Notes: generated by a model from the letters alone, not told the origin. A DNA stretch of 32,000 nucleotides from Cereibacter sphaeroides 2.4.1 (GCF_000012905.2 NC_007493.2:1230001-1262000); one strand, 5' to 3'. Counted from the first letter of the stretch, positions 1 through 9,714 are shown. Made by a program: numbers and translations.

Positions 1-567
1 TTCAACGGGATGCAGAGCTCTCTTTCCATGGTCTACGACCGCGAGACGGGCGCGATGCGGACGCTGCTCGTCAGCCCCTATCCGCGCTGGTTCCTTCTCG
101 GCTCGAAGCTCGTGGCGGGCGTGCTGGTCTCGATCCTGCAGGTCTATGCTTTCCTCCTCATCGCCTGGCTCTGGGGCATCCGCCCGCCGCCGCTCGGCTA
201 TCTCGCCGTCCTGCCCGCGCTGTTCCTGTCGGGGCTGATGCTGGGCGCGCTCGGCCTCTTCATCTCGTCGGCGATCCGGCAGCTCGAGAACTTCGCGGGC
301 GTGATGAACTTCGTGATCTTCCCGATGTTCTTCGCCTCGACCGCGCTCTATCCGCTGTGGCGGCTGAAGGACTCGAGCCCGCTTCTGGCCGATATCGCGC
401 TGGCCAATCCCTTCACCCACGCGGTCGAACTGATCCGCTTTGCCCTCTACCGGCAGGTCGAGCCTCTGGCGCTGGCCGTGGTCGCGGGCGCAGGCCTCGT
501 CTTCTTCGGAGCGGCGGTCTTCATGTACGATCCCTCGAAGGGCCTGTGGGCCCTGCGCAAGCGATAG
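1..567 (+). CDS. ABC-2 type exporter permease, C-terminal part (5' end lies outside the window)
   Basis: Frame 1 is open from nt 1 to TAG 565-567. The translation is a series of hydrophobic helices (LVAGVLVSILQVYAFLLIAWLWG, FVIFPMFFASTALYP, LAVVAGAGLVFFGAAVF) typical of ABC-2/NodJ-like permeases. The context fits the exporter found in PQQ-dehydrogenase clusters. Confidence 0.75.
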   Translation, partial: FNGMQSSLSMVYDRETGAMRTLLVSPYPRWFLLGSKLVAGVLVSILQVYAFLLIAWLWGIRPPPLGYLAVLPALFLSGLMLGALGLFISSAIRQLENFAGVMNFVIFPMFFASTALYPLWRLKDSSPLLADIALANPFTHAVELIRFALYRQVEPLALAVVAGAGLVFFGAAVFMYDPSKGLWALRKR

Positions 568-576
568 GAGGTTCCC

Positions 577-1170
577 ATGCTCAGATGGTGCATTCCGGCG
601 ATCCTCGCGGCGGGCACCGCCATGGGGGCGGATTTCTCCGATCCCGACTGGCCCTGCATCCAGCGCAAGCAGCCGCATCTGTCGCTGGGGCAGGTCTGGA
701 GCGGGCCTCTCCCGGATGCCGCGACCGAAGAGCTGGCGCGCGAACCGGCGATCCAGGGGTTGGCGCAGGAGCTGGAACAGCGGCGGCTTCCGGTGGAAGA
801 GGCCGAAGGGCGGATCGCCCGGTTCGCCGCCGACCACGAGCCGCAGGAGCTGGTGGCGCTCTATGTCGCGACCTTCGAGCGGATCGAATCCGTCCGCAAC
901 CGCGTGATGGCGGGCATCACCCGCTATGCCCACAGCCAGGAGGCGCTCGACCGCCGGATCAACGCGGCCCGCACCGAGATGGGCCGGCTCATGGCGGCGG
1001 AGGACAAGGACTTCGACCGGATCGACGCACTCGAGGAGCAGCTCGACTGGGACACGCGGATCTTCCGCGAGCGCCAGCAGTCGCTGACCTATGTCTGCGA
1101 GACGCCGGTGATCCTCGAGCGCCGGGCCTTCGCCCTGGGCCGGGCGGTGACGCAGCACCTGCCGAAATAG
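577..1170 (+). CDS. Secreted hypothetical protein coupled to the ABC-2 exporter (helical, coiled-coil-like)
   Basis: The ATG lies 9 nt after the permease stop and is preceded by TAGGAGGTTCCC (strong SD). Third codon positions are GC-rich. The N-terminus has a signal peptide (MLRWCIPAILAAGTAMGA). The mature part is rich in E/R/A/L, and I recognise no domain. Confidence 0.6.
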   Translation: MLRWCIPAILAAGTAMGADFSDPDWPCIQRKQPHLSLGQVWSGPLPDAATEELAREPAIQGLAQELEQRRLPVEEAEGRIARFAADHEPQELVALYVATFERIESVRNRVMAGITRYAHSQEALDRRINAARTEMGRLMAAEDKDFDRIDALEEQLDWDTRIFRERQQSLTYVCETPVILERRAFALGRAVTQHLPK

Positions 1171-1314
1171 TCGCGCCCGCTGTCGATGCGACGCGCCCCG
1201 TGCTGCACGCTGGGTGCTGCGCGGTTTCTCCCCCGCGCGCTCCCGATGCGGTTGGGCAGCCTGAAGCGGCGCTCCTCACCGACGTCCGCCCGCCGTCCGG
1301 CCGGGGCGGGTGGC

Positions 1315-2358
1315 CTATTCCCACTCCAGCTCGGCATAGGCGGCCGAGGCGTTGCGCGGATGGCTCTCCTCGTAGCCCGTCCAGTGCCGCGCGTCTTCGG
1401 GATCGCGCGCGCGGATCGCGGCGCTCATCGGCAGTCCCTCGGCAATCGCCGCGCGGATCGTGGTGCGCAGATGCTCGAGATAGGCGCGCGTCGCCTGCGC
1501 TCCCTCGGGCCAGGGCAGCGGCGCGGGACCGTGCCCCGGCACGATGCGGCGCACCTCGGGATGGGCGGCCGAAAGCCAGCCGATCCAGCCTTTGAGCGAG
1601 CCGTCGAGCGTCGGCAGCAGGCCGTTGAACACCAGATCGCCGGTGAAGAGCGTGCCCGAGACCGGCTCGAACACCGTCAGGTCATTGTCGGTATGGGCCG
1701 TGGGCACCGCCTGCAGATGCAGCCGGAGGCCGCCCAGATCCAGCCACTCCTCCGCCACGCCGCGGTCGGGCGGCACGGGCCGCGTGCCGAGCAGCGCGCC
1801 CGCGCCGATCTGCGTGGGATAGCTCTCCATCCAGCCCTCGGCGCGCGCCTCGATGCCCGCGGCGAGTTTCGGCGCCCCGAGGATCTCGGCGCCCGCCTCG
1901 CGGAAGAGATCGGCGCCGAACGTGTGGTCGGGATGCATGTGGGTCAGGATCACCGCCCGGATCGGCAGGTCGCTGCGCGCGCGGATCGCGGCATAGAGGG
2001 CCTCCGCCTCGGCCCGGCTCGCGCCTGCGTCGATGACGGCGATCCCTTCGGTGCCGATGGCAAGGCTCAGATTGGCGATGGCGCCGCGGTTCTGCGGATC
2101 GGGCAGGGCGGTCTGCCCCTCATGCACCCAGAGGCCGCCGCCGATCTCCTTCATCGCAAGCCGCGGCAGCGCCTCGGTGGGCAGGCACCGGCTCTCGCCC
2201 CCGGCAAGCTCGGGATGCGCCGAAAGCCAGTCCGCCGCCCGCGCCTCCGCGGTTTTCCGGCAGTCGGCCTCGCTCAGCGCCGCGGGTGCCGGAAGCAGCC
2301 GCTCGGCGCAGAGGGCGGGATCCGCCAGCAGGCAGACGCTCAGCATCAGATGAAACAT
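1315..2358 (-). CDS. Secreted MBL-fold zinc metallohydrolase (quinoprotein relay system zinc metallohydrolase-like)
   Basis: It carries the HxHxDH motif (ILTHMHPDHTFG) plus downstream His/Asp ligands. I start it at ATG 2358 (MFHLMLSVCLLADPALCA, signal-like; AGAGG SD upstream) rather than ORF-track 2427. It is divergent from the SoxYZ-like carrier gene. Confidence 0.8.
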   Translation of the reverse strand: MFHLMLSVCLLADPALCAERLLPAPAALSEADCRKTAEARAADWLSAHPELAGGESRCLPTEALPRLAMKEIGGGLWVHEGQTALPDPQNRGAIANLSLAIGTEGIAVIDAGASRAEAEALYAAIRARSDLPIRAVILTHMHPDHTFGADLFREAGAEILGAPKLAAGIEARAEGWMESYPTQIGAGALLGTRPVPPDRGVAEEWLDLGGLRLHLQAVPTAHTDNDLTVFEPVSGTLFTGDLVFNGLLPTLDGSLKGWIGWLSAAHPEVRRIVPGHGPAPLPWPEGAQATRAYLEHLRTTIRAAIAEGLPMSAAIRARDPEDARHWTGYEESHPRNASAAYAELEWE

Positions 2359-2463
2359 GCCTCTGCCTAGCCGCTTCCGCAGGCGCGCGCACTCAGCCGA
2401 AAGTCTCATAGGCGGGGCGGGCTGCACATGGTTTCATGTTGACTGCCAGCACAGGAGATCGCC

Positions 2464-3270
2464 ATGCGCATCGTCCGGTCGAGCATCATTTGTGCAGTTC
2501 TGCTGACCACCCCGCTCTGGGCCGAGGAAAAGCCCAGTCCGCTCCAGTCGGGCGAGGCCTGGGAGAGCCTGCAATTCGACGTCTTCGGCACCGGGGACAT
2601 CGTCGAGACGCCCGGCGCGCTCAGCCTCGACACGCCCTTTCGGGCGCACGATCCGGCGCTCGTGCCGGTGCGGGTGACGCAACCTCCCGACGGGCCGCGG
2701 ATCGAGGAACTGACCTTGGTCATCGACGAGAACCCTGCGCCGGTGGCCGCGACCTTCACGCTGGGCCCGGCGATGCATCCGCTCGATCTCGAGGTGCGGG
2801 TGCGGGTCAATGCCTATTCCAACGTGCGCGCGGTGGCGCGGACGGAAGGCGGCCAGTGGCAGATGGCAGGCCGCTTCGTCCGCGCGACGGGGGGATGTGC
2901 CGCGCCTGCGGGCAAGGATGCCGAGGCGGCTCTGGCCCATCTGGGGCAGATGCGGTTTCAGCCCGTCTCCGCCGACACGAGTGGCGGCGACCTGCGGCGC
3001 GAGGCCAAGCTCATGATCCGGCACCCGAACTATTCGGGGCTGCAACGCGATCAGGTCTCGCTGATGATGATCCCCGCCCGATTCATCGACCGGCTCGAGG
3101 TGATGCAGGGCGAAGAGCTTCTGTTCTCGATGACCGGCGGCATCTCGATCTCGGAGGATCCGGTCTTCACCTTCCGCTACCGCGACAATGGCGCAGGCGA
3201 GGTGACGGTGCGGGCCGTGGACACGGAAGGGGTGGAGTTCGGGGCGACCTTCCCGCTGCCTGCCGGCTGA
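2464..3270 (+). CDS. Fused SoxY/SoxZ-like periplasmic carrier protein (quinoprotein dehydrogenase-associated SoxYZ-like carrier)
   Basis: An AGGAG SD lies 6 nt upstream of the ATG. It has a signal peptide (MRIVRSSIICAVLLTTPLWA). The N-half is SoxY-like and ends in an internal GGC motif (RATGGCAAPAG, Cys145 = nt 2896-2898). The C-half is SoxZ-like (MIRHPNYSGLQ...SISEDPVFTFRY). Confidence 0.75.
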   Translation: MRIVRSSIICAVLLTTPLWAEEKPSPLQSGEAWESLQFDVFGTGDIVETPGALSLDTPFRAHDPALVPVRVTQPPDGPRIEELTLVIDENPAPVAATFTLGPAMHPLDLEVRVRVNAYSNVRAVARTEGGQWQMAGRFVRATGGCAAPAGKDAEAALAHLGQMRFQPVSADTSGGDLRREAKLMIRHPNYSGLQRDQVSLMMIPARFIDRLEVMQGEELLFSMTGGISISEDPVFTFRYRDNGAGEVTVRAVDTEGVEFGATFPLPAG

Positions 3271-3436
3271 CGGCAACATTTGCCCGCCGAAGGGAACCGC
3301 AAGGGCTTGTCGCCCGTTGGGGAAACCGGGCAAGATCGTCCGGGATGCGGATGCGACCATAGGGAGCGTGACGGTCGGGGCCGACGGGGAAGACCGCGCA
3401 GGGAGGAGGAAGCCCGCGCGGAAACGGGAGGAAGAG

Positions 3437-4144
3437 ATGGGACATGTTTCGGGAGGCATCGCCTGCGCAGGGGCGCAGCGGGTGCCCACACGCATGATCG
3501 GCGACATCCTGATCGTCGATGACCACCCGCTGATGTGCGACGCGCTGGCGATGACCTTGACCCACGCCTTCGGCCTGAAACGCGTCCGCAGCGCCGCGAG
3601 CCTCGCCGCGGCGGAGAAGATCCTGCGCGAGGGGCCCTTGCCCGATGCCATCGTGCTCGACCTGAACCTGCCGGACGTGCGCGGCATCGAGGGCGTGATG
3701 AGCCTGCAGAAGCTCGCGCGGAGCGTGCCGCTCACGGTGATCTCGGCCGAGGTCGATGCCGAGATGGTGACGGCCGCCATGGCGGCCGGGGCGCAGGGCT
3801 ATGTCTCGAAAAGCCTGCCGCGGCCGCAGATGGTCGAGGCTTTCGCCCGGATGTGGACCGGCGAATTCGTCACGCCCGAGGAATACGATGCCGACGGGGC
3901 GGGCGAGGACGGCGGCGAGCAGATGCGCGAGCTGGCCCGCAGCTTCGCCACCCTCACGCCGCAGCAGATGAACATCCTGCGGCTGATCTGTCAGGGCCGG
4001 CCGAACAAGCTCATCTCCTACGAGCTCTCGATCGCCGAAGCGACGGTCAAGACCCACATCGCCGCCATCATGACGAAGATCAACGTGAGAAACCGCACGC
4101 AGGCGGCCCTGCTGGCCAGCAAGGCGCGGATCTTCGCGCGGTAG
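3437..4144 (+). CDS. LuxR/NarL-family two-component response regulator (REC + LuxR HTH)
   Basis: The REC domain shows ILIVDDHPL...VLDLNLPD...YVSK. The C-terminal LuxR HTH shows LTPQQMNILRLICQGRPNKLISYELSIAEATVKTHIAAIMTKINVRNRTQA. Start ATG 3437 follows GGGAGGAAGAG. ATG 3494 (MIGDILIVDD) is an alternative but has no SD. ORF-track start 3317 is unsupported. Confidence 0.85.
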   Translation: MGHVSGGIACAGAQRVPTRMIGDILIVDDHPLMCDALAMTLTHAFGLKRVRSAASLAAAEKILREGPLPDAIVLDLNLPDVRGIEGVMSLQKLARSVPLTVISAEVDAEMVTAAMAAGAQGYVSKSLPRPQMVEAFARMWTGEFVTPEEYDADGAGEDGGEQMRELARSFATLTPQQMNILRLICQGRPNKLISYELSIAEATVKTHIAAIMTKINVRNRTQAALLASKARIFAR

Positions 4145-4154
4145 GGAGCGTCGC

Positions 4155-5315
4155 GTGACGACAGAGCATCCGGCGGAGGTGAGGGAGACCGCCCAAGGGG
4201 CGGGGGCGCCCGTGGTCTTGTCAGAGCCTGCGGATGCGCCGGATCTGGCCGAGCGCCTGCGGGCCGGGCTGGCGGACGCACGGCCCGCGGCCGTCCTGCT
4301 CTTCGCCTCGCCGGGCGCCGATCTTCCGGCGCTGGCGGCCCATCTCGGGCCCGCTCTCGGCACGCGGGTCGTGGGCTGCTCCTCGGCGGGCGAATTCGCC
4401 TGCGGCGGCTACGGCCACGGTCACGTCGTGGCGGTGGGCCTGCCGGCGGCACGCTTCCGCACCGAGGCGGTGTGGCTGCGCAACCTCGCCGGGCTCGGCG
4501 TCTCGGAATGGATGGCCGAGCTGCGCGCGCTCTTTTCCCGCTTCGAGGTCCAGCCGCGGCGGCACCGCTTCGGGCTTCTCCTGATCGACGGGCTCAGCCG
4601 TCAGGAGGAGCTGGTGGCGGCGACCGTCGATGCGGTGGCCCACCGCCTGCCGGTGCTGGGCGGATCGGCGGGCGACGGGCTGCGCTTCGAGGAGACCTGC
4701 CTCGTCCTCGACGGCGAGAGCCACCGCGACAGCGCGATCTTCGCGCTGTTCGAGACGGATTTCGCGCTGGAGCAGGTGATCTTCGACCATTTCACCCCCT
4801 CGGGGAGCCGGATGGTGGTGACCGCCGCCGTCCCCGAGGAGCGGCTGATCCTCGAGATCAACGCCGAGCCCGCGGCCGAGGAATATGCGCGCCTGATCGG
4901 CCTTGCGCCCGAGGCGCTGAACCCGCGCGTCTTCGCCGAGAACCCGCTCCTTGTCCGGATGGGCGGGCAATATCACGTCCGCGCCATCCGCGAGGTCACG
5001 CCCGAGGGCGGGCTCACCCTCATGTCTTCGATCGAGAGCGGCGTCCTGCTGGCGCTCGGCCGGGCCGACGATCTGACCCACGGGCTTCAGGCCCGGCTCG
5101 AGGCCTTGGGAGAGCGGCCTGCGCTGATCCTCGCCTTCGACTGCATCCTGCGCCGTCTCGCCCTCGAACAGGCGGGGCTCGAGCCCGCCGTGGCGCGGCT
5201 CTTCGCCGACTGGCGCATCGCGGGCTTCAACACCTACGGCGAGCAGCACGGCGGTGTGCATGTGAACCAGACCTTCGTGGGCCTCGCCCTGATGGAGCCC
5301 GCCCATGCTGCGTGA
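4155..5315 (+). CDS. FIST-N/FIST-C domain sensor protein (NosP-like)
   Basis: GTG start lies 10 nt after the response-regulator stop, with a GGGAG SD. It is 386 aa and cytoplasmic. Its FIST-type C-terminus (FNTYGEQHGGVHVNQTFVGLAL) and its position immediately upstream of, and overlapping, a NahK/ErcS-type kinase match the NosP-NahK arrangement. Confidence 0.7.
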   Translation: MTTEHPAEVRETAQGAGAPVVLSEPADAPDLAERLRAGLADARPAAVLLFASPGADLPALAAHLGPALGTRVVGCSSAGEFACGGYGHGHVVAVGLPAARFRTEAVWLRNLAGLGVSEWMAELRALFSRFEVQPRRHRFGLLLIDGLSRQEELVAATVDAVAHRLPVLGGSAGDGLRFEETCLVLDGESHRDSAIFALFETDFALEQVIFDHFTPSGSRMVVTAAVPEERLILEINAEPAAEEYARLIGLAPEALNPRVFAENPLLVRMGGQYHVRAIREVTPEGGLTLMSSIESGVLLALGRADDLTHGLQARLEALGERPALILAFDCILRRLALEQAGLEPAVARLFADWRIAGFNTYGEQHGGVHVNQTFVGLALMEPAHAA

Positions 5316-6738
5316 CGACGACGGCCTCGAACGGCAGGTCGAGAAGCTGAAGCGGATCAACGCGGCGCTCGTCGAGCGGCTGGATCGCGCCGATGCCTCG
5401 CGCGGCTCGCACTGGATGCTGTTCCAGACCGCGACCGTGCTCGAGCAGGAGCTGCTGGCGCGCAACCGCGATCTGGAACAGGCGCTCGCCCATCTGGAAT
5501 CGGTGAACCGGGAACTGGCCCTCGCGCGCGAGACGGCGGACGAGGCGAACCGCTCGAAGAGCCGTTTCCTGCGCGCCGCAAGCCACGATCTGCTGCAACC
5601 CCTGAGTGCCGCCAAGCTCTTCCTGTCGCATCTGTCCGAAACGGTGAACGAACCGCTGCAGGCCGATCTGGTCTCGCGGATCGGCACGGCCTTCGATTCG
5701 ACCGAAGAGCTGATCCGCGCGCTGCTCGAGATCTCGCGGCTCGATTCCGTCAGGCTCGACATTTCGACCGAGCGGGTCTCGCTGGGCCGGCTCTTCCAGC
5801 GGCTGATGGTGGATTTCCACGGCGACGCGGCCGCCCGCGGGCTGGAACTGCGCTTCGTCAACTCCTCGGCCACGGTCATGTCGAACCCGGTCTTCCTGCG
5901 CCGGATCGCCCAGAACCTCGTCTCGAACGCGATCAAATACACGCGGACGGGCCGGGTGCTCGTCGGCGCCCGGCGCGAGGGGGCGGATGTCTGGCTCGAG
6001 GTGCATGACACGGGCCCCGGCATCGCGCCCGAGGACCGCGAGCGGATCTTCAACGAATTCGAGCGGCTGGCGCCCGAAGGCGAGGAACCGGGCACGGGCC
6101 TCGGCCTCTCCATCGTGCGGCGCGCCTGCCTGCGGCTCGGCCACGAGGTCGCACTCGACAGTGCCCCGGGGCGCGGCTCGGTCTTCCGCATCCGCCTGCC
6201 GCGCGCGCTCGAGGCGCCGGGGGCGATCGAGGCGGGACCGGCCTCGGCGGCCAGCACCGGCGCGGTCCAGCGTCTGGCCGGAGCGCCACCGGAGCAGATG
6301 CTGATGGCCGATCCGGTGGCGGCGGGCCCTGCGGCCGCGCCCCTCGTCGGGCGGCGGGTGCTGGTGGTCGAGAACGATGCAGCGATGCGCGACGCCTATG
6401 CGCTCCTCCTCCGGCGCTGGGGGATGCTGGTCGCCACGGCCGACGGCACTCAAGCGGCCCTCGACCGTCTCGGAAGCTTTCTGCCCGAGCTTCTGGTGAC
6501 CGATTACCGGCTCGACCGCGGGGAGACCGGCCTTCAGACCATCGCGGCGCTGCGCCGCCGTCTGGGTCCGCGCCTGCCCGCGCTGATCGTGACGGCCGAA
6601 CCCGCCGCCCAGCTCGAAGCGCAGGCCGACCGGCTGGAGGCCGCGCTGCTGCGCAAGCCGGTGTCCGAGAGCGCGCTGCGCGAGCGGCTCTCGGCGCTTC
6701 TGGAGGGCCGCCGCCGGAGAGCGGCCGCCGCGGAATGA
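5305..6738 (+). CDS. Soluble hybrid sensor histidine kinase/response regulator (NahK/ErcS-like)
   Basis: The ATG overlaps the FIST gene by 11 nt. It has an N-terminal coiled coil (LERQVEKLKRINAALVERL), H-box SHDLLQPLSAAKL, N-box LVSNAIKYT, G-boxes HDTGPGI and GTGLGLSIV, and a C-terminal REC domain (VLVVENDAAM...LLVTDYRLD). There are no transmembrane segments. Confidence 0.85.
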   Translation: MLRDDDGLERQVEKLKRINAALVERLDRADASRGSHWMLFQTATVLEQELLARNRDLEQALAHLESVNRELALARETADEANRSKSRFLRAASHDLLQPLSAAKLFLSHLSETVNEPLQADLVSRIGTAFDSTEELIRALLEISRLDSVRLDISTERVSLGRLFQRLMVDFHGDAAARGLELRFVNSSATVMSNPVFLRRIAQNLVSNAIKYTRTGRVLVGARREGADVWLEVHDTGPGIAPEDRERIFNEFERLAPEGEEPGTGLGLSIVRRACLRLGHEVALDSAPGRGSVFRIRLPRALEAPGAIEAGPASAASTGAVQRLAGAPPEQMLMADPVAAGPAAAPLVGRRVLVVENDAAMRDAYALLLRRWGMLVATADGTQAALDRLGSFLPELLVTDYRLDRGETGLQTIAALRRRLGPRLPALIVTAEPAAQLEAQADRLEAALLRKPVSESALRERLSALLEGRRRRAAAAE

Positions 6739-6748
6739 AAGGATGAGC

Positions 6749-7357
6749 ATGAGACCCTTGCGAGCGATGCTGCTCCTCGTGGCGCTGACGGTGGCCACCG
6801 GGGCCGAAGCCGGACGGCTGGCCGAGGTGATCTTCCGCCCCGGCGCCTTCGCCGCCACCGGCGAGGTCACGTGCTACGCCCATCGGCGCGAGGGGCCCGA
6901 GGTGCGGGGCCTCCAGCTCGTGCCCGAGGGCGCGCTTCTGGTCTCTCCCGTGGCCAGCGCCGAGGGCCCGCGTCTCGCGCTCGTCCAGAGGGTGGACGGG
7001 CGCGACCAGCCCGTCGCCAGTTTCTCGGCCGCGGGCGGCGATCCGGTGCTCCTGTGGTTCCTCGAGAACACGGTGCGCAGCATGGCGACCATCACCGAGG
7101 GCAGCCCCTTCTACATCCGCAACCGGATGCGCGAAGCGCTCGGGGCCGCCGGTCTCGCCGAGGCCGAGGGGCCGGTGACGGCCGAACTGCGCCCGTTCGC
7201 CGAGGATCCGAAGCGGGCCGCGATGGGCGCCTTCGCGGGCCTCGTCCTCCGGATCACCGTCGATCCCTCCGCCCCCGTTCCGATCCGCGCGCTTGAAGCC
7301 GATACGACGGCCGCGGGCGGCATCTACCGCGAGACCCTGACGTTGGAGGCGCCATGA
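6749..7357 (+). CDS. Secreted hypothetical protein
   Basis: It starts 4-10 nt after the kinase stop. ATG 6749 has AAAGGA 5 nt upstream; ATG 6743 is the alternative. It has a signal peptide (MRPLRAMLLLVALTVATGAEA) and GC-rich third positions. I recognise no domain. Confidence 0.6.
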   Translation: MRPLRAMLLLVALTVATGAEAGRLAEVIFRPGAFAATGEVTCYAHRREGPEVRGLQLVPEGALLVSPVASAEGPRLALVQRVDGRDQPVASFSAAGGDPVLLWFLENTVRSMATITEGSPFYIRNRMREALGAAGLAEAEGPVTAELRPFAEDPKRAAMGAFAGLVLRITVDPSAPVPIRALEADTTAAGGIYRETLTLEAP

Positions 7358-7857
7358 CTTCCCTTCTGCCGTTCCCCCGCATGCGGTGCCTCGCGCTGAT
7401 CCTGGCCCTCCTGCCGCTGCCCGCCATCGCGCAGACCGGCACACCCGCCGCGCCGCCGGAAGTCTCAGGCGGCGCTCCCACCGCGGCCCCCCAGCACACG
7501 GGCGAGGCAGCCCCGCCCGGCGCGGCGCGGGGGCCGGATGCGGGCGCGGTGCGCGCCGCGCCCGATCTCCATTTCGACGAGCGCCTCAACGATTATCCGA
7601 CGCTGGCGCGCGCCGACTATATCTTCGCCTGCCTCGCGACCAACGGGCAAGATCGCAACACGATGCGGCGTTGCGCCTGCTCCATCGACGTGATCGCCTC
7701 GATCCTGCCCTACGAGGCCTATGAGAAGGCCGAGACCATCCTCTCGATGCGACTGGGGACGGGCGAGCGCGCCGGCCTGTTCCGGATTCCCGCGACGCAG
7801 GCCGGCGTGGCCGACCTCCGGCGCGCGCAGGCGGAAGCCGAGATGACCTGCTTCTGA
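7354..7857 (+). CDS. Secreted hypothetical Cys-containing protein with an Ala/Pro-rich linker
   Basis: Its start overlaps the upstream stop in an ATGA arrangement, with a GGAGG SD 4 nt upstream. It has a signal-like N-terminus (RCLALILALLPLPAIAQ), a roughly 45-aa A/P/G linker, then a globular part with Cys93, Cys107, Cys109 and Cys166. Confidence 0.6.
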   Translation: MTSLLPFPRMRCLALILALLPLPAIAQTGTPAAPPEVSGGAPTAAPQHTGEAAPPGAARGPDAGAVRAAPDLHFDERLNDYPTLARADYIFACLATNGQDRNTMRRCACSIDVIASILPYEAYEKAETILSMRLGTGERAGLFRIPATQAGVADLRRAQAEAEMTCF

Positions 7858-7949
7858 GGAGCGCCCGGCCGCCTTCGGGCGAGCGCAGTCCCGCGACCCC
7901 GGCGGGATTGCCGACCTCCGGCGCGCACAGGCGGACGCCGGGATGACCT
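7810..7949. repeat. Imperfect 40-nt direct repeat (7810-7849 and 7910-7949), exactly 100 bp apart
   Basis: Position-by-position alignment gives 37/40 identities, with mismatches at 7827, 7836 and 7841. Copy 1 is the last 40 nt before the final two codons of CDS 7354-7857. Copy 2 is intergenic, just before the stop of the convergent ABC ATPase gene. Confidence 0.85.
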
Positions 7950-7954
7950 CCGGC

Positions 7955-8737
7955 CTACCTTCGTCCGTGGAAGTCCGAGCCGGGGTCGTTCAGCACCATG
8001 TCGCGCAGCCGCTCCCAGAGATGGCGGCGGAGTTCGGCATAGAGGGGCAGGGCGCGGGTATCGGTGTCGCGGCGCGGGCGGGGGAAGGGAACGGCCACCT
8101 CCTCGACCACCCGGCCCGGTCGCGGCGACATGAGGAGGATCCGGTCGGCGAGGATCAGCGCCTCATCCACCGAATGCGTGACGAAGAGCACAGTCGCCGG
8201 GCGCCGCTCCAGAAGCCGCATGAGCTCGACCTGCATGAGCTCGCGCGCCTGCGCGTCGAGGCTCGCGAAGGGCTCGTCCATCAGCAGGATCTCGGGTTCG
8301 GCCGCGAGCGCGCGTGCCAGCGCCAGCCGCTGGCGCATCCCTCCCGACAGCTGGGCCGGCCAGCTTTTCGCGAAGCGTGAAAGACCGACCAGCTCGAGGT
8401 AGCGGTCGGCCCGCTGCCGCGCCTCGGCCCGCGACAGCCGCGGCAGGGCGAAGGCCACATTCTCGCGGGCGCTCTTCCAGGGGATCAGCCGGAAGGACTG
8501 GAATACCAGCGCCGTCTTTTCACCCGGACGCGGCGGCGCGCCCTCGACCGTCACCCGGCCCGCGTCGGGCGCGATCAGCCCCGCCACGAGGCGCATGAGC
8601 GTGGTCTTGCCGCAGCCCGAGGGGCCGAGCACCACCACCACCTCGTCGCGGCCGAGCGACAGTGAGACGTCCTCCAGCGCAGAGACCTCGCCGAAGGCCA
8701 GCGACACACGGTCGAGCCGGACGTGCTCGGCCCTCAC
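7955..8737 (-). CDS. ABC transporter ATP-binding protein (NitT/TauT nitrate/sulfonate/taurine-type)
   Basis: It has Walker A GPSGCGKTT, signature LSGGMRQRLALARAL and Walker B LLMDEPFASLD. I chose the GTG start at 8737 because it forms a GTGA overlap with the SBP stop and gives a typical 260 aa. The ORF-track extension to 8980 overlaps the SBP gene. Confidence 0.85.
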   Translation of the reverse strand: MRAEHVRLDRVSLAFGEVSALEDVSLSLGRDEVVVVLGPSGCGKTTLMRLVAGLIAPDAGRVTVEGAPPRPGEKTALVFQSFRLIPWKSARENVAFALPRLSRAEARQRADRYLELVGLSRFAKSWPAQLSGGMRQRLALARALAAEPEILLMDEPFASLDAQARELMQVELMRLLERRPATVLFVTHSVDEALILADRILLMSPRPGRVVEEVAVPFPRPRRDTDTRALPLYAELRRHLWERLRDMVLNDPGSDFHGRR

Positions 8738-9714
8738 CCCTGCGCCGGGCCGAGCTTCTGCAGCACCGTCTCCAGCGGCCCGAAGTCCGTCCATTCCTCC
8801 AGCCCGACCGGGCGGAGACCCTGGAAATCCTCGGTGCCATACATCCATTCCGTCGTCACCTTCAGTTCCTCGCGCGTGAACCCGCCATCGATGCTCCAGC
8901 TGTTGCGGTAGGCGCGGGCCAGTTCCTCGAGATCGGCTCGCGGCACGTCGGGGCGCGCCACCGCCATCCGCTCGACCCATGTCGCGGGATCCTGGAAATC
9001 GCGTGCGGCCAGCACCAGCGCCTCGATCACCGCCTCGACCTCCGCCCGGCGGCTCTTAAGAACCTCGGTCGTGACCGCATTGACCTTGGTCGTGACCGGG
9101 GCGGCCGCGAAATAAGCGTCCATGCCCACGAGGATCCGCAGGCCCTCGCGATCAGGCATGGCCGTCCATGTTCCGATCGACATGGTGGTGGCATCGACCT
9201 GACCCGCCAGCAGCGCCTGCGCCCGGACCGCGGGCTGGCCCAGCGGCACGAGGTTCAGCTTCGAGACATCGACGCCTTCGGCCGCCAGAACCTTCGCGCT
9301 CAGCGAATGGTCGAGCGAGCCCACCCGGCCGATGCCGAAGCTGCGGCCTTCGAGCGCGCGGGGCGTCTCGATCTCGGGCTTCGCCGCGATCAGGAAGGGC
9401 AGCGCCTTGTTGGGCGACATCACCGCGCGCAGATCGGTCGTGCCGCGGGCGGCGAGTTGCAGCAGCGCATCCGTCGAGACATTGGCCATCTCGCCTTCGC
9501 CCGCCTGCAGCGCGGCCAGCGCCATCGGCGTCTGCTGCACGCGCACCAGCTCCACCTCGACGCCGGCGCGCTCGAAATAGCCGTTGGCCAGCGCCAGATC
9601 CATCACGGAATTCGGCACCAGCGGCGTCTCGAGATCGCTCACGATGAGACGGAAGGGCTCGGCCGCGGCCGGGGCGGCGACGGCCAGCAGAAGCAGGGCG
9701 AAAAGGCGTTTCAT
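8734..9714 (-). CDS. ABC transporter periplasmic substrate-binding protein (NMT1/THI5-like, NitT/TauT family)
   Basis: It has a signal peptide (MKRLFALLLLAVAAPAAAEP) and a GGAGGA SD. The sequence resembles sulfonate/nitrate/HMP-type binding proteins. Confidence 0.8.
   Translation of the reverse strand: MKRLFALLLLAVAAPAAAEPFRLIVSDLETPLVPNSVMDLALANGYFERAGVEVELVRVQQTPMALAALQAGEGEMANVSTDALLQLAARGTTDLRAVMSPNKALPFLIAAKPEIETPRALEGRSFGIGRVGSLDHSLSAKVLAAEGVDVSKLNLVPLGQPAVRAQALLAGQVDATTMSIGTWTAMPDREGLRILVGMDAYFAAAPVTTKVNAVTTEVLKSRRAEVEAVIEALVLAARDFQDPATWVERMAVARPDVPRADLEELARAYRNSWSIDGGFTREELKVTTEWMYGTEDFQGLRPVGLEEWTDFGPLETVLQKLGPAQG

Follow-up and report, generated by a model that had tools for sequence, protein, structure and literature searches.

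The locus considered here raises the question of what signal reaches a histidine kinase that itself lacks a sensor domain, and of whether the kinase and its neighbors belong with the NO-responsive NosP/NahK system of Pseudomonas or with the formaldehyde regulators of the FlhRS type. Within the window (the whole 32,000-nt stretch of R. sphaeroides 2.4.1 DNA that was analyzed), the analysis confirms a three-gene operon encoding a regulator (R), a FIST protein (T) and a kinase without a sensor domain (S):

ATG 3437 to TAG 4142-4144, plus strand: R, LuxR/NarL-type response regulator, 235 aa
GTG 4155 to TGA 5313-5315, plus strand: T (RSP_2592), stand-alone FIST_N+FIST_C protein, 386 aa
ATG 5305 to TGA 6736-6738, plus strand: S (RSP_2593), soluble hybrid histidine kinase, 477 aa

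All three frames have a GC3 of 0.88, typical of coding DNA in a 70% GC genome, and GTG 4155 is supported as the FIST start because P19 of the protein is at least 90% conserved (53 homologs). R and T are separated by a gap of 10 nt, with GGGAG immediately 5' of the FIST start, and the FIST and kinase genes share an 11-nt overlap, ATG 5305 lying within the FIST gene. This packing had been described beforehand; its coordinates are borne out, and it is conserved across 79 orthologous loci. In most of these the T-S junction, measured from the FIST stop to the first possible kinase start, is an overlap of 11, 14, 17 or 4 nt or a gap of 0-3 nt, and the R-T junction is usually an overlap of 1 or 4 nt. 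A scan for sigma-70 promoters and terminators over window positions 2300-8100 returned none. The operon also stands, as had been proposed, beside XoxF-type and quinoprotein accessory genes, and its immediate neighbors are as follows:

1-567: PedC-type ABC-2 permease (NCBIfam TIGR03861, above cut-off)
577-1170: protein of 197 aa
1315-2427, minus strand: relay metallohydrolase 2 (NCBIfam TIGR04559, above cut-off)
2464-3270: SoxYZ-like carrier (NCBIfam TIGR04557, above cut-off)
6743-7857, plus strand: two genes, co-oriented with the kinase gene, whose products (204 and 167 aa) have signal peptides

The quinoprotein accessory arrangement (1-3270) is kept upstream of R-T-S in most loci. Also upstream are gfa, adhI (encoding glutathione-dependent formaldehyde dehydrogenase), a cytochrome c in the cycI position (101.8 bits on NF043008, below the cut-off of 240), xoxF, xoxG and a PQQ-system ABC binding protein; R-T-S lies ~7 kb downstream of xoxF and ~9 kb from the adhI-cycI operon. 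On the other side, the 204- and 167-aa proteins gave no Pfam or NCBIfam match. Of 80 orthologous loci that reach that far, the great majority have their genes, orf204 and orf167, following the kinase gene; both are absent from one (L065), and they probably belong to the R-T-S operon.

The order of the trio, a LuxR regulator, a FIST protein and a histidine kinase, matches that of FlhRS and of AfdRTS-RfdRTS. In R. sphaeroides, the R-T-S operons afdR-afdT-afdS and rfdR-rfdT-rfdS regulate adhI (Hickman et al., 2004, summarised in PMC4776306), and in Paracoccus denitrificans FlhSR is an activator required for induction, with roles in formaldehyde, methanol and methylamine oxidation. Exactly two FIST genes of the NosP family are present in the R. 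sphaeroides genome, both lying between genes for a LuxR regulator and a hybrid kinase, and the second R-T-S set, with a PAS kinase, is found at C1:1.55 Mb. Since these two sets match the published description of two operons, the trio is one of AfdRTS and RfdRTS, and the correspondence to the afd/rfd loci that the preliminary description had guessed at was right (PMC4776306). Its further supposition that such a system had not been examined was mistaken, as genetic work on this family exists both in P. denitrificans (FlhRS) and in R. sphaeroides (Afd/Rfd, FlhR). The genome of P. denitrificans DSM 413 contains a single such FIST gene, located in the syntenic order MBL, SoxYZ-like, R, T, S, orf204, orf167, with identities of 61, 52 and 51% for R, T and S, respectively, and its FIST protein forms one clade with T at 100/100 support. 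Judged from sequence, this syntenic locus would be flhR-orf2-flhS. The trio, RSP_2591-2593, is quite likely an R-T-S system of the FlhRS/Afd-Rfd type, the syntenic ortholog of FlhR-orf2-FlhS, with its input via T.

R comprises Response_reg and GerE HTH domains (Pfam) and retains the receiver phospho-acceptor D75. Its best NCBIfam match is ErdR (NF041830) at 142 bits against a cut-off of 390, a model that does not discriminate here, because the regulator in the AgmR position of a bona fide NosP/NahK locus, to which R is 35% identical, itself reaches only 184.8 bits. R is presumably RSP_2591, which the Klug lab named FlhR; RSP_2590 is listed as hypothetical, and the RSP_2591 mRNA is credited to Billenkamp, whose paper reports that CcsR targets flhR. 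The flhR mRNA is a target of the CcsR1-4 sRNAs (PMC8034643, also the source of the CCUCCUCCC motif), and two short motifs in and around the gene may bear on its expression and on that of T:

3401-3409, plus strand: GGGAGGAGG, in the 5' leader of R, the exact complement of CCUCCUCCC, the anti-SD loop motif of CcsR1-4
4071-4082, plus strand: TGACGAAGATCA, a TGA-N6-TCA (Fnr/CrpK-type) motif, 73 nt 5' of the FIST start

The first of these, GGGAGGAGG, is present in a single copy in the window and in 70 copies in 4.6 Mb, both strands counted. The second falls within a CrpK-only peak from published ChIP-seq data, at chr1 1234000-1234399 (window 4000-4399), whose assigned gene is RSP_2592, listed as a hypothetical protein (PMC4263372 Table 3).

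The kinase had been described as having neither a membrane domain nor a sensor domain of its own, and this holds. S consists of the Pfam core HisKA, HATPase_c and Response_reg, with the catalytic H94, the N, G1 and G2 boxes and the receiver D400 all present; domain and hydropathy searches of its 477 residues gave neither a PAS nor an Hpt domain nor a membrane helix, and 19-residue windows across R, T and S gave no membrane helix, with a maximum Kyte-Doolittle value of 1.35. A candidate stand-alone Hpt gene is located at C1:2981159-2981344. Assignment to a NosP/NahK-type module, made in the preliminary description together with the suggestion of comparing the trio with the Pseudomonas proteins, was borne out in part. 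The trio is of the same broad family as Pseudomonas NosP/NahK (ErcS') with its LuxR regulator: the NosP and NahK/ErcS models are the best NCBIfam matches of T and S, and R, T and S are 35-37% identical to a bona fide NosP/NahK/AgmR-like set, but every score falls below its cut-off, the FIST protein lies in a separate clade and the PAS domains are missing. S scores 324.4 bits on the NahK/ErcS model NF041832 (cut-off 400) and 262.7 bits on the NahK model NF041831 (cut-off 1500), where a control NahK scores 555.5 and 1708.3 bits; T scores 323.7 bits, full-length, on the NosP model NF041558 (cut-off 450), where a bona fide NosP scores 601.6 bits. The bona fide reference loci were taken from a phylum-wide scan; a NosP reference sought in 14 control genomes matched only in Methanocaldococcus, below the cut-off. 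The kinase alignment is in two parts, as residues 8-83 of S align with NahK 32-107 (39% identity) and residues 39-467 with NahK 462-873 (35% identity), and the same two-part alignment is seen against the genome's own PAS-containing paralog kinase. S shares with NahK/ErcS the core of HisKA, HATPase and receiver together with an N-terminal helical segment, a feature common to all three groups of kinases compared, whereas the PAS region between this helix and HisKA is present in NahK and the paralog kinase and absent from S. S looks like NahK minus its PAS block, with the N-terminal helix kept. Another lineage (L120) also has a PAS-less kinase beside a NosP that scores above the cut-off.

These comparisons bear directly on whether T is a true NosP, that is, a heme protein that senses NO (alternatively heme or redox state) and by way of a NahK-type kinase would gate the quinoprotein and C1 genes. 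T has FIST_N (1.9e-40) and FIST_C (3.7e-21) domains in Pfam and shares the NosP layout of a stand-alone gene directly upstream of that of its partner kinase; full-length coverage by the NosP and NahK/ErcS models, 37% identity to a bona fide NosP over 366 residues and retention of C75, C330 and H369, which are invariant family-wide (H369 being the sole family-wide invariant His), are all consistent with such a role. NO input would also be physiologically sensible, as the AdhI/AdhC enzyme class reduces S-nitrosoglutathione (PMC4776306). However, every curated cut-off is missed, and in the tree T belongs to a separate Paracoccaceae clade (100/100 support) on a long stem of 0.86, outside the NosP-like clade (97/97), which is sister to the type-2 paralogs and not to the T clade. 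Moreover, the gammaproteobacterial NosP fixed residues C51, Y55, C291 and C328 are replaced by A, A, S and F in T, which instead carries the type-1-specific residues H365, M290 and G310, and the signal genetically defined for the orthologous FlhSR is formaldehyde-generating metabolism. A true NosP at this locus is accordingly held to be improbable. A PDB sequence search with T returned no relative, and comparison of its AF2 model (pLDDT 89) with solved structures is uninformative on a heme pocket, because the only solved FIST folds are the human FBXO22 complexes (TM ~0.45 to the T model); the next structural matches are cyanuric acid hydrolase and chorismatase.

T might conversely have no sensory role, being chaperone-like or vestigial, with S controlled by its own receiver, by cross-talk with the paralog or through control of expression by sRNAs and CrpK. 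The rfdT mutant, the only T-gene mutant reported, showed unchanged adhI expression with formaldehyde (PMC4776306), and for the homologs in Pseudomonas, models of heterodimer formation and cross-talk have been put forward (PMC12997753). Yet T lies between R and S in all loci examined with the overlap conserved, keeps 44 near-invariant positions across 46 distant FIST family members, and has a fold predicted with high confidence; since purifying selection and gene coupling both argue for a working partner, a non-sensory T is very improbable. The remaining choice is between the two formaldehyde operons. The trio could be the repressor set RfdRTS, with the PAS-kinase paralog at C1:1.55 Mb as AfdRTS, given that the R-T-S layout is common to both sets and that the database name GfdT is found on both FIST clusters; as a discriminator between Afd and Rfd this name was discarded, being applied to Paracoccus orthologs as well. 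Against RfdRTS, both synteny and phylogeny make the trio the ortholog of the only P. denitrificans system, which is an activator, and RSP_2591 has been called FlhR, the activator targeted by CcsR. In addition, Rfd is said to respond to a different signal (PMC4776306), which fits a kinase with PAS domains of its own. The repressor assignment therefore seems rather unlikely, and AfdRTS, the activator set, is favored as the probable identity of the trio on account of the synteny with the FlhRS activator and the Klug lab name.

With the trio read as an activator set of the Afd type, a model can be outlined by which it may operate. Translational coupling would allow T to be made in step with S, and T would bind S, plausibly at the N-terminal helix, and set its autophosphorylation rate, by analogy with NosP and NahK/NosK. 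S would then autophosphorylate on H94 and pass the phosphoryl group to D75 of R, either directly or by way of the S receiver (D400) and a stand-alone Hpt protein, upon which phosphorylated R would activate adhI-cycI and other C1 genes. Expression of R would be further damped by CcsR1-4, as the literature on flhR indicates, their anti-SD loops matching the leader exactly, and the T-S part of the operon may have its own CrpK-dependent promoter. As kinases of the FlhS/AfdS type lack a sensor domain, T suggests itself as the candidate through which the signal enters, and proteins of the NosP type bind and regulate partner kinases that lack sensor domains (PMC12570481; PMC11237717). It is tentatively suggested, as a possibility on the doubtful side, that the FlhSR/AfdRS pathway receives its signal through T (RSP_2592; orf2 of P. 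denitrificans), which would then be the missing input component. What T senses could be formaldehyde or a glutathione adduct, for example via the invariant C75, C330 and H369 or the type-1-specific H365. Alternatively, as a relative of NosP, it could render the regulon responsive to NO, S-nitrosoglutathione or heme, in keeping with the additional S-nitrosoglutathione reductase activity of the regulated AdhI-class enzyme.

As a genetic entity the R-T-S system is already known: genetics defined its regulator and kinase family over twenty years ago, and the mRNA is an established sRNA target. What the present comparison contributes is the connection that the gene called 'T' or 'orf2' in the formaldehyde regulators encodes a relative of the NO/heme sensor NosP, from one and the same protein family, and that the partner kinase corresponds to NahK minus the PAS block; among the open-access papers searched in full text, none was found that links NosP, or FIST together with a histidine kinase, to formaldehyde. 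The comparison also shows that the FIST-kinase-LuxR module was already tied to PQQ-dehydrogenase clusters before the alpha/gamma-proteobacterial split. With T as the input candidate, formaldehyde sensing by bacteria carrying R-T-S becomes a simple experimental question.

Set beside known systems, the trio is most like FlhR-orf2-FlhS of P. denitrificans, with which it shares the R-T-S order, a hybrid kinase of ~440-480 aa without a sensor domain, a SoxYZ-like carrier and MBL upstream, and orf204 and orf167 downstream. The two differ in that P. denitrificans has one set only, whereas R. sphaeroides has the second, PAS-kinase set, and in that the P. denitrificans regulator and FIST genes overlap (ATGA) where the R. 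sphaeroides trio has a 10-nt gap. With respect to NosP (PA1975), NahK, also called ErcS' or PedS1 (PA1976), and ErbR, also called AgmR (PA1978), of the ethanol-oxidation ped/exa cluster of Pseudomonas, the trio is, as far as the sequences allow, a distant PAS-less cousin and not a member. Both systems have a FIST gene just 5' of that of a soluble hybrid kinase, an adjacent LuxR-type regulator, a PedC-type transporter and PQQ-dehydrogenase genes nearby, and a common N-terminal kinase helix and HisKA-HATPase-REC core (35-39% identity). The P. putida module sits in the PQQ-dehydrogenase ped cluster (PMC12997753), and in other Pseudomonadota, NosP/NahK loci of the bona fide kind (L118, L119, L121) also adjoin a PedC permease. 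However, NahK carries a PAS block of ~350 residues that S lacks, nosP-nahK lie opposite the regulator in Pseudomonas whereas R-T-S share one strand, and the Pseudomonas output is HptB/Rsm biofilm control, whereas the known output of the trio's system is formaldehyde and C1 metabolism. The NosP-NosK/NahK-NosR/NarR systems of Burkholderia and Legionella likewise place a kinase without a recognized sensor domain under an auxiliary FIST sensor; however, the kinases there are not hybrid kinases with quinoprotein genes as neighbors, and the output regulators are c-di-GMP enzymes, whereas the trio has a LuxR DNA-binding regulator.

The trio consists of three closely packed genes:

ATG 3437 to TAG 4142-4144, plus strand: LuxR-type response regulator R (Pfam Response_reg and GerE)
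GTG 4155 to TGA 5313-5315, plus strand: stand-alone FIST protein T (Pfam FIST_N and FIST_C)
ATG 5305 to TGA 6736-6738, plus strand: hybrid histidine kinase S (Pfam HisKA, HATPase_c and Response_reg)

The starts, the stops, the 10-nt gap between the regulator and FIST genes and the 11-nt overlap between the FIST and kinase genes all reproduce the preliminary description. GC3 is 0.88 in each of the three frames. GGGAG lies ahead of GTG 4155, and conservation that extends back to P19 among 53 homologs speaks for translation of the FIST gene from this GTG. Close junctions recur across 79 orthologous loci, so the compact arrangement goes beyond this one genome: the FIST and kinase genes mostly overlap by 4-17 nt or are separated by 0-3 nt, and for the regulator and FIST genes an overlap of 1 or 4 nt is usual. 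The kinase was likewise confirmed to lack a membrane or sensor domain, as Pfam reports only the three signaling domains and a hydrophobicity check revealed no segment sufficiently hydrophobic for a membrane helix in regulator, FIST protein or kinase. The phospho-acceptors are retained (kinase H94 and D400, regulator D75). The H-box, H-D-L-L-Q, departs from the H-E/D-x-x-T/N phosphatase motif (as given in PMC12570481), which is common in hybrid kinases.

That the trio is embedded in a quinoprotein dehydrogenase locus also proved correct, given the neighboring genes, named by NCBIfam matches above curated cut-offs, and the presence of gfa, adhI, cycI, xoxF, xoxG and a PQQ-system ABC binding protein gene within 18 kb upstream of the window:

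1-567: PedC-type alcohol ABC permease
1315-2427, minus strand: “quinoprotein relay system zinc metallohydrolase 2”
2464-3270: “quinoprotein dehydrogenase-associated SoxYZ-like carrier”

Regulation of adhI by systems of the FlhRS and Afd/Rfd type is already known in this strain. As reviewed from Hickman et al. (2004), adhI is under the control of AfdRS, a formaldehyde-responsive activator, and RfdRS, a repressor, with afdT and rfdT placed between the respective R and S genes (PMC4776306); flhR-orf2-flhS of Paracoccus denitrificans has the same layout (PMC4776306). A profile search of the source genome found exactly two NosP-family FIST genes, the second of which belongs to a paralogous operon:

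Chromosome 1, 1.552 Mb: second FIST gene, flanked by LuxR regulator and hybrid kinase genes
L004 (G000:C1:1545001-1560000), 5159-9381, minus strand: paralogous R-T-S operon, with a 733-aa kinase bearing two PAS_7 domains

Immediately downstream of this operon come coxG/coxS/coxL/coxM-like molybdoenzyme genes, and upstream of it are glycogen genes (phosphoglucomutase and debranching enzyme). The operon's products share 44% (R), 43% (T) and 42% (S) identity with those of the window. P. denitrificans DSM 413 possesses one such FIST gene, at a syntenic locus ordered MBL, SoxYZ-like, R, T, 441-aa kinase, orf204, orf167, where R, T and S are 61, 52 and 51% identical to the window's proteins; hence the trio would be the ortholog of FlhR-orf2-FlhS. 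The earlier guess at the afd/rfd loci was thus right, and the accompanying view that the system had not been examined was mistaken for the very strain, in light of the afd/rfd genetics (Hickman et al., 2004, via PMC4776306) and of work on CcsR and flhR. As to which set the trio represents, FlhSR is described as an activator required for induction by formaldehyde-generating substrates, as is AfdRS, and the Rfd system is reviewed as answering a signal other than that of Afd (PMC4776306), which fits the paralogous kinase with PAS domains of its own. The trio is therefore probably AfdRTS, the activator set. The database name “GfdT” was rejected as a discriminator, since it is applied to both paralogs and database names consequently do not help to separate Afd from Rfd.

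Published data on this strain allow locus tags to be proposed. ChIP-seq in strain 2.4.1 placed a CrpK-only site, assigned to “RSP_2592, hypothetical protein” and positively regulated, at chromosome 1 1234000-1234399 (PMC4263372). As the window begins at 1230001, this peak corresponds to window 4000-4399 and spans the FIST start; TGACGAAGATCA (TGA-N6-TCA) at 4071-4082, in the 3'-terminal part of the regulator gene and 73 nt before the FIST start, coincides with it, which suggests a candidate internal promoter for the FIST-kinase part. RSP_2590 is described in the literature as a hypothetical protein, which fits the SoxYZ-like gene, and from these two anchors we infer that the regulator, FIST protein and kinase are RSP_2591, RSP_2592 and RSP_2593, respectively. 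According to papers citing Billenkamp et al. (2015), the sRNAs CcsR1-4 target flhR mRNA, and the anti-SD sequence CCUCCUCCC is present in the loop of each CcsR (PMC8034643); F. Billenkamp also provided a fragment of “RSP_2591 mRNA” that has served as control RNA. The exact complement of the anti-SD sequence, GGGAGGAGG, occurs at 3401-3409, 28 nt upstream of the regulator ATG, as one of 70 copies genome-wide. Taken together, these points indicate that the regulator is likely the gene named flhR by the Klug laboratory. A second G-rich SD, GGGAGGAAGAG, stands immediately 5' of the regulator start.

The kinase, judged by its sequence, would be unable to sense by itself. Work on relatives lends support, by analogy, to a regulatory FIST-kinase pair, as NosP of B. 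pseudomallei binds NosK and, when loaded with hemin, inhibits NosK autophosphorylation (PMC12570481), and NO-bound NosP of Legionella activates NahK (PMC11237717). Phosphate may then pass directly from kinase to regulator or, equally possibly, be relayed through the kinase receiver and a stand-alone Hpt protein. The latter route is made possible by a candidate in the genome, where just one short ORF encoding an isolated Hpt domain exceeds the Pfam cut-off; it could relay for both hybrid kinases:

G000:C1:2981159-2981344: candidate stand-alone Hpt, 37.9 bits, in a 124-aa open frame

The FlhSR signal has been called biochemically unidentified in the literature, and the AdhI-class enzyme, the regulated target, also reduces S-nitrosoglutathione (PMC4776306).

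Maximum-likelihood analysis of 47 FIST proteins groups that of the window with its P. denitrificans counterpart in a clade (100/100) on a long stem (0.86), and makes the NosP-like clade (97/97) the sister group of the PAS-kinase-associated paralogs (100/98). C75, C330 and H369 are invariant in 46/46 aligned sequences; C51, Y55, C291 and C328, fixed in gammaproteobacterial NosP, are replaced in the window's protein, and H365, M290 and G310 are particular to its clade. The AlphaFold model (pLDDT 89) is confident except for loop 364-369, which bears both of these histidines. A PDB sequence search with this protein detected no relative, and among solved structures the FIST fold is represented by human FBXO22 complexes only.

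The best 80 loci from named genomes that are orthologous to the trio (type 1) all belong to Paracoccaceae and close kin. The order R-T-S-orf204-orf167 is found in almost all that reach that far, with the exception of L065, which has neither downstream gene; upstream, most have PedC and a 197-aa gene or an MBL and SoxYZ-like pair. The two downstream products matched no family, and the 167-aa protein, at 46-90% identity (mostly 51-70%) across orthologous loci, is better conserved than the 204-aa protein:

Window 6743-7857: genes, overlapping at ATGA, for two proteins with signal peptides (204 and 167 aa)

L011 and about half of the other type-1 loci (for instance L012, L013 and L017-L021) carry a second two-component pair between kinase and orf204, absent in Cereibacter and most Paracoccus, which recalls MoxXY/MxaXY of P. 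denitrificans:

L011 10488-12682: inserted pair, 513-aa HisKA/HATPase kinase and OmpR-type regulator

The initial designation as a NosP/NahK-type module holds for family resemblance and fails for membership proper, since the best NCBIfam models for the trio are NosP, NahK/ErcS and ErdR, with every score below its cut-off.

Scores of the trio against NCBIfam models
FIST protein, NosP (NF041558): 323.7 bits, cut-off 450
Kinase, NahK/ErcS family (NF041832): 324.4 bits, cut-off 400
Kinase, NahK proper (NF041831): 262.7 bits, cut-off 1500
Regulator, ErdR (NF041830): 142 bits, cut-off 390

The NosP family was found in 83 of 401 Pseudomonadota genomes scanned, 20 above cut-off. At L118, a bona fide locus (NosP 601.6 and NahK 1708.3 bits) with an adjacent LuxR regulator and PedC, identity to the window is 37% for FIST, 35% for the kinase core and 35% for the regulator. 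Kinase residues 8-83 align with NahK 32-107 (39% identity) and residues 39-467 with NahK 462-873. This split, which recurs against the source genome's own PAS kinase, and an N-terminal helix motif common to all three kinase groups argue that the window's kinase is NahK-like with the PAS block removed. Such loss probably occurred more than once in the family, as in another lineage (L120, G080:C1:3580001-3597000, 6623-9002) a NosP that exceeds its cut-off (562.7 bits) has as partner a short kinase without PAS domains, in which the NahK N-terminal helix is joined straight to HisKA. Type-2 modules, which contain the PAS-kinase-associated paralogs, sometimes adjoin PQQ-dehydrogenase and PedC genes in relatives (L131, L133), and the P. 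putida genome encodes the NosP homolog PP_2663, PedS1 and AgmR three genes before pedC (PMC12997753); together with the Paracoccaceae loci, these arrangements suggest that the association of FIST-kinase-LuxR modules with quinoprotein loci is old and widespread.
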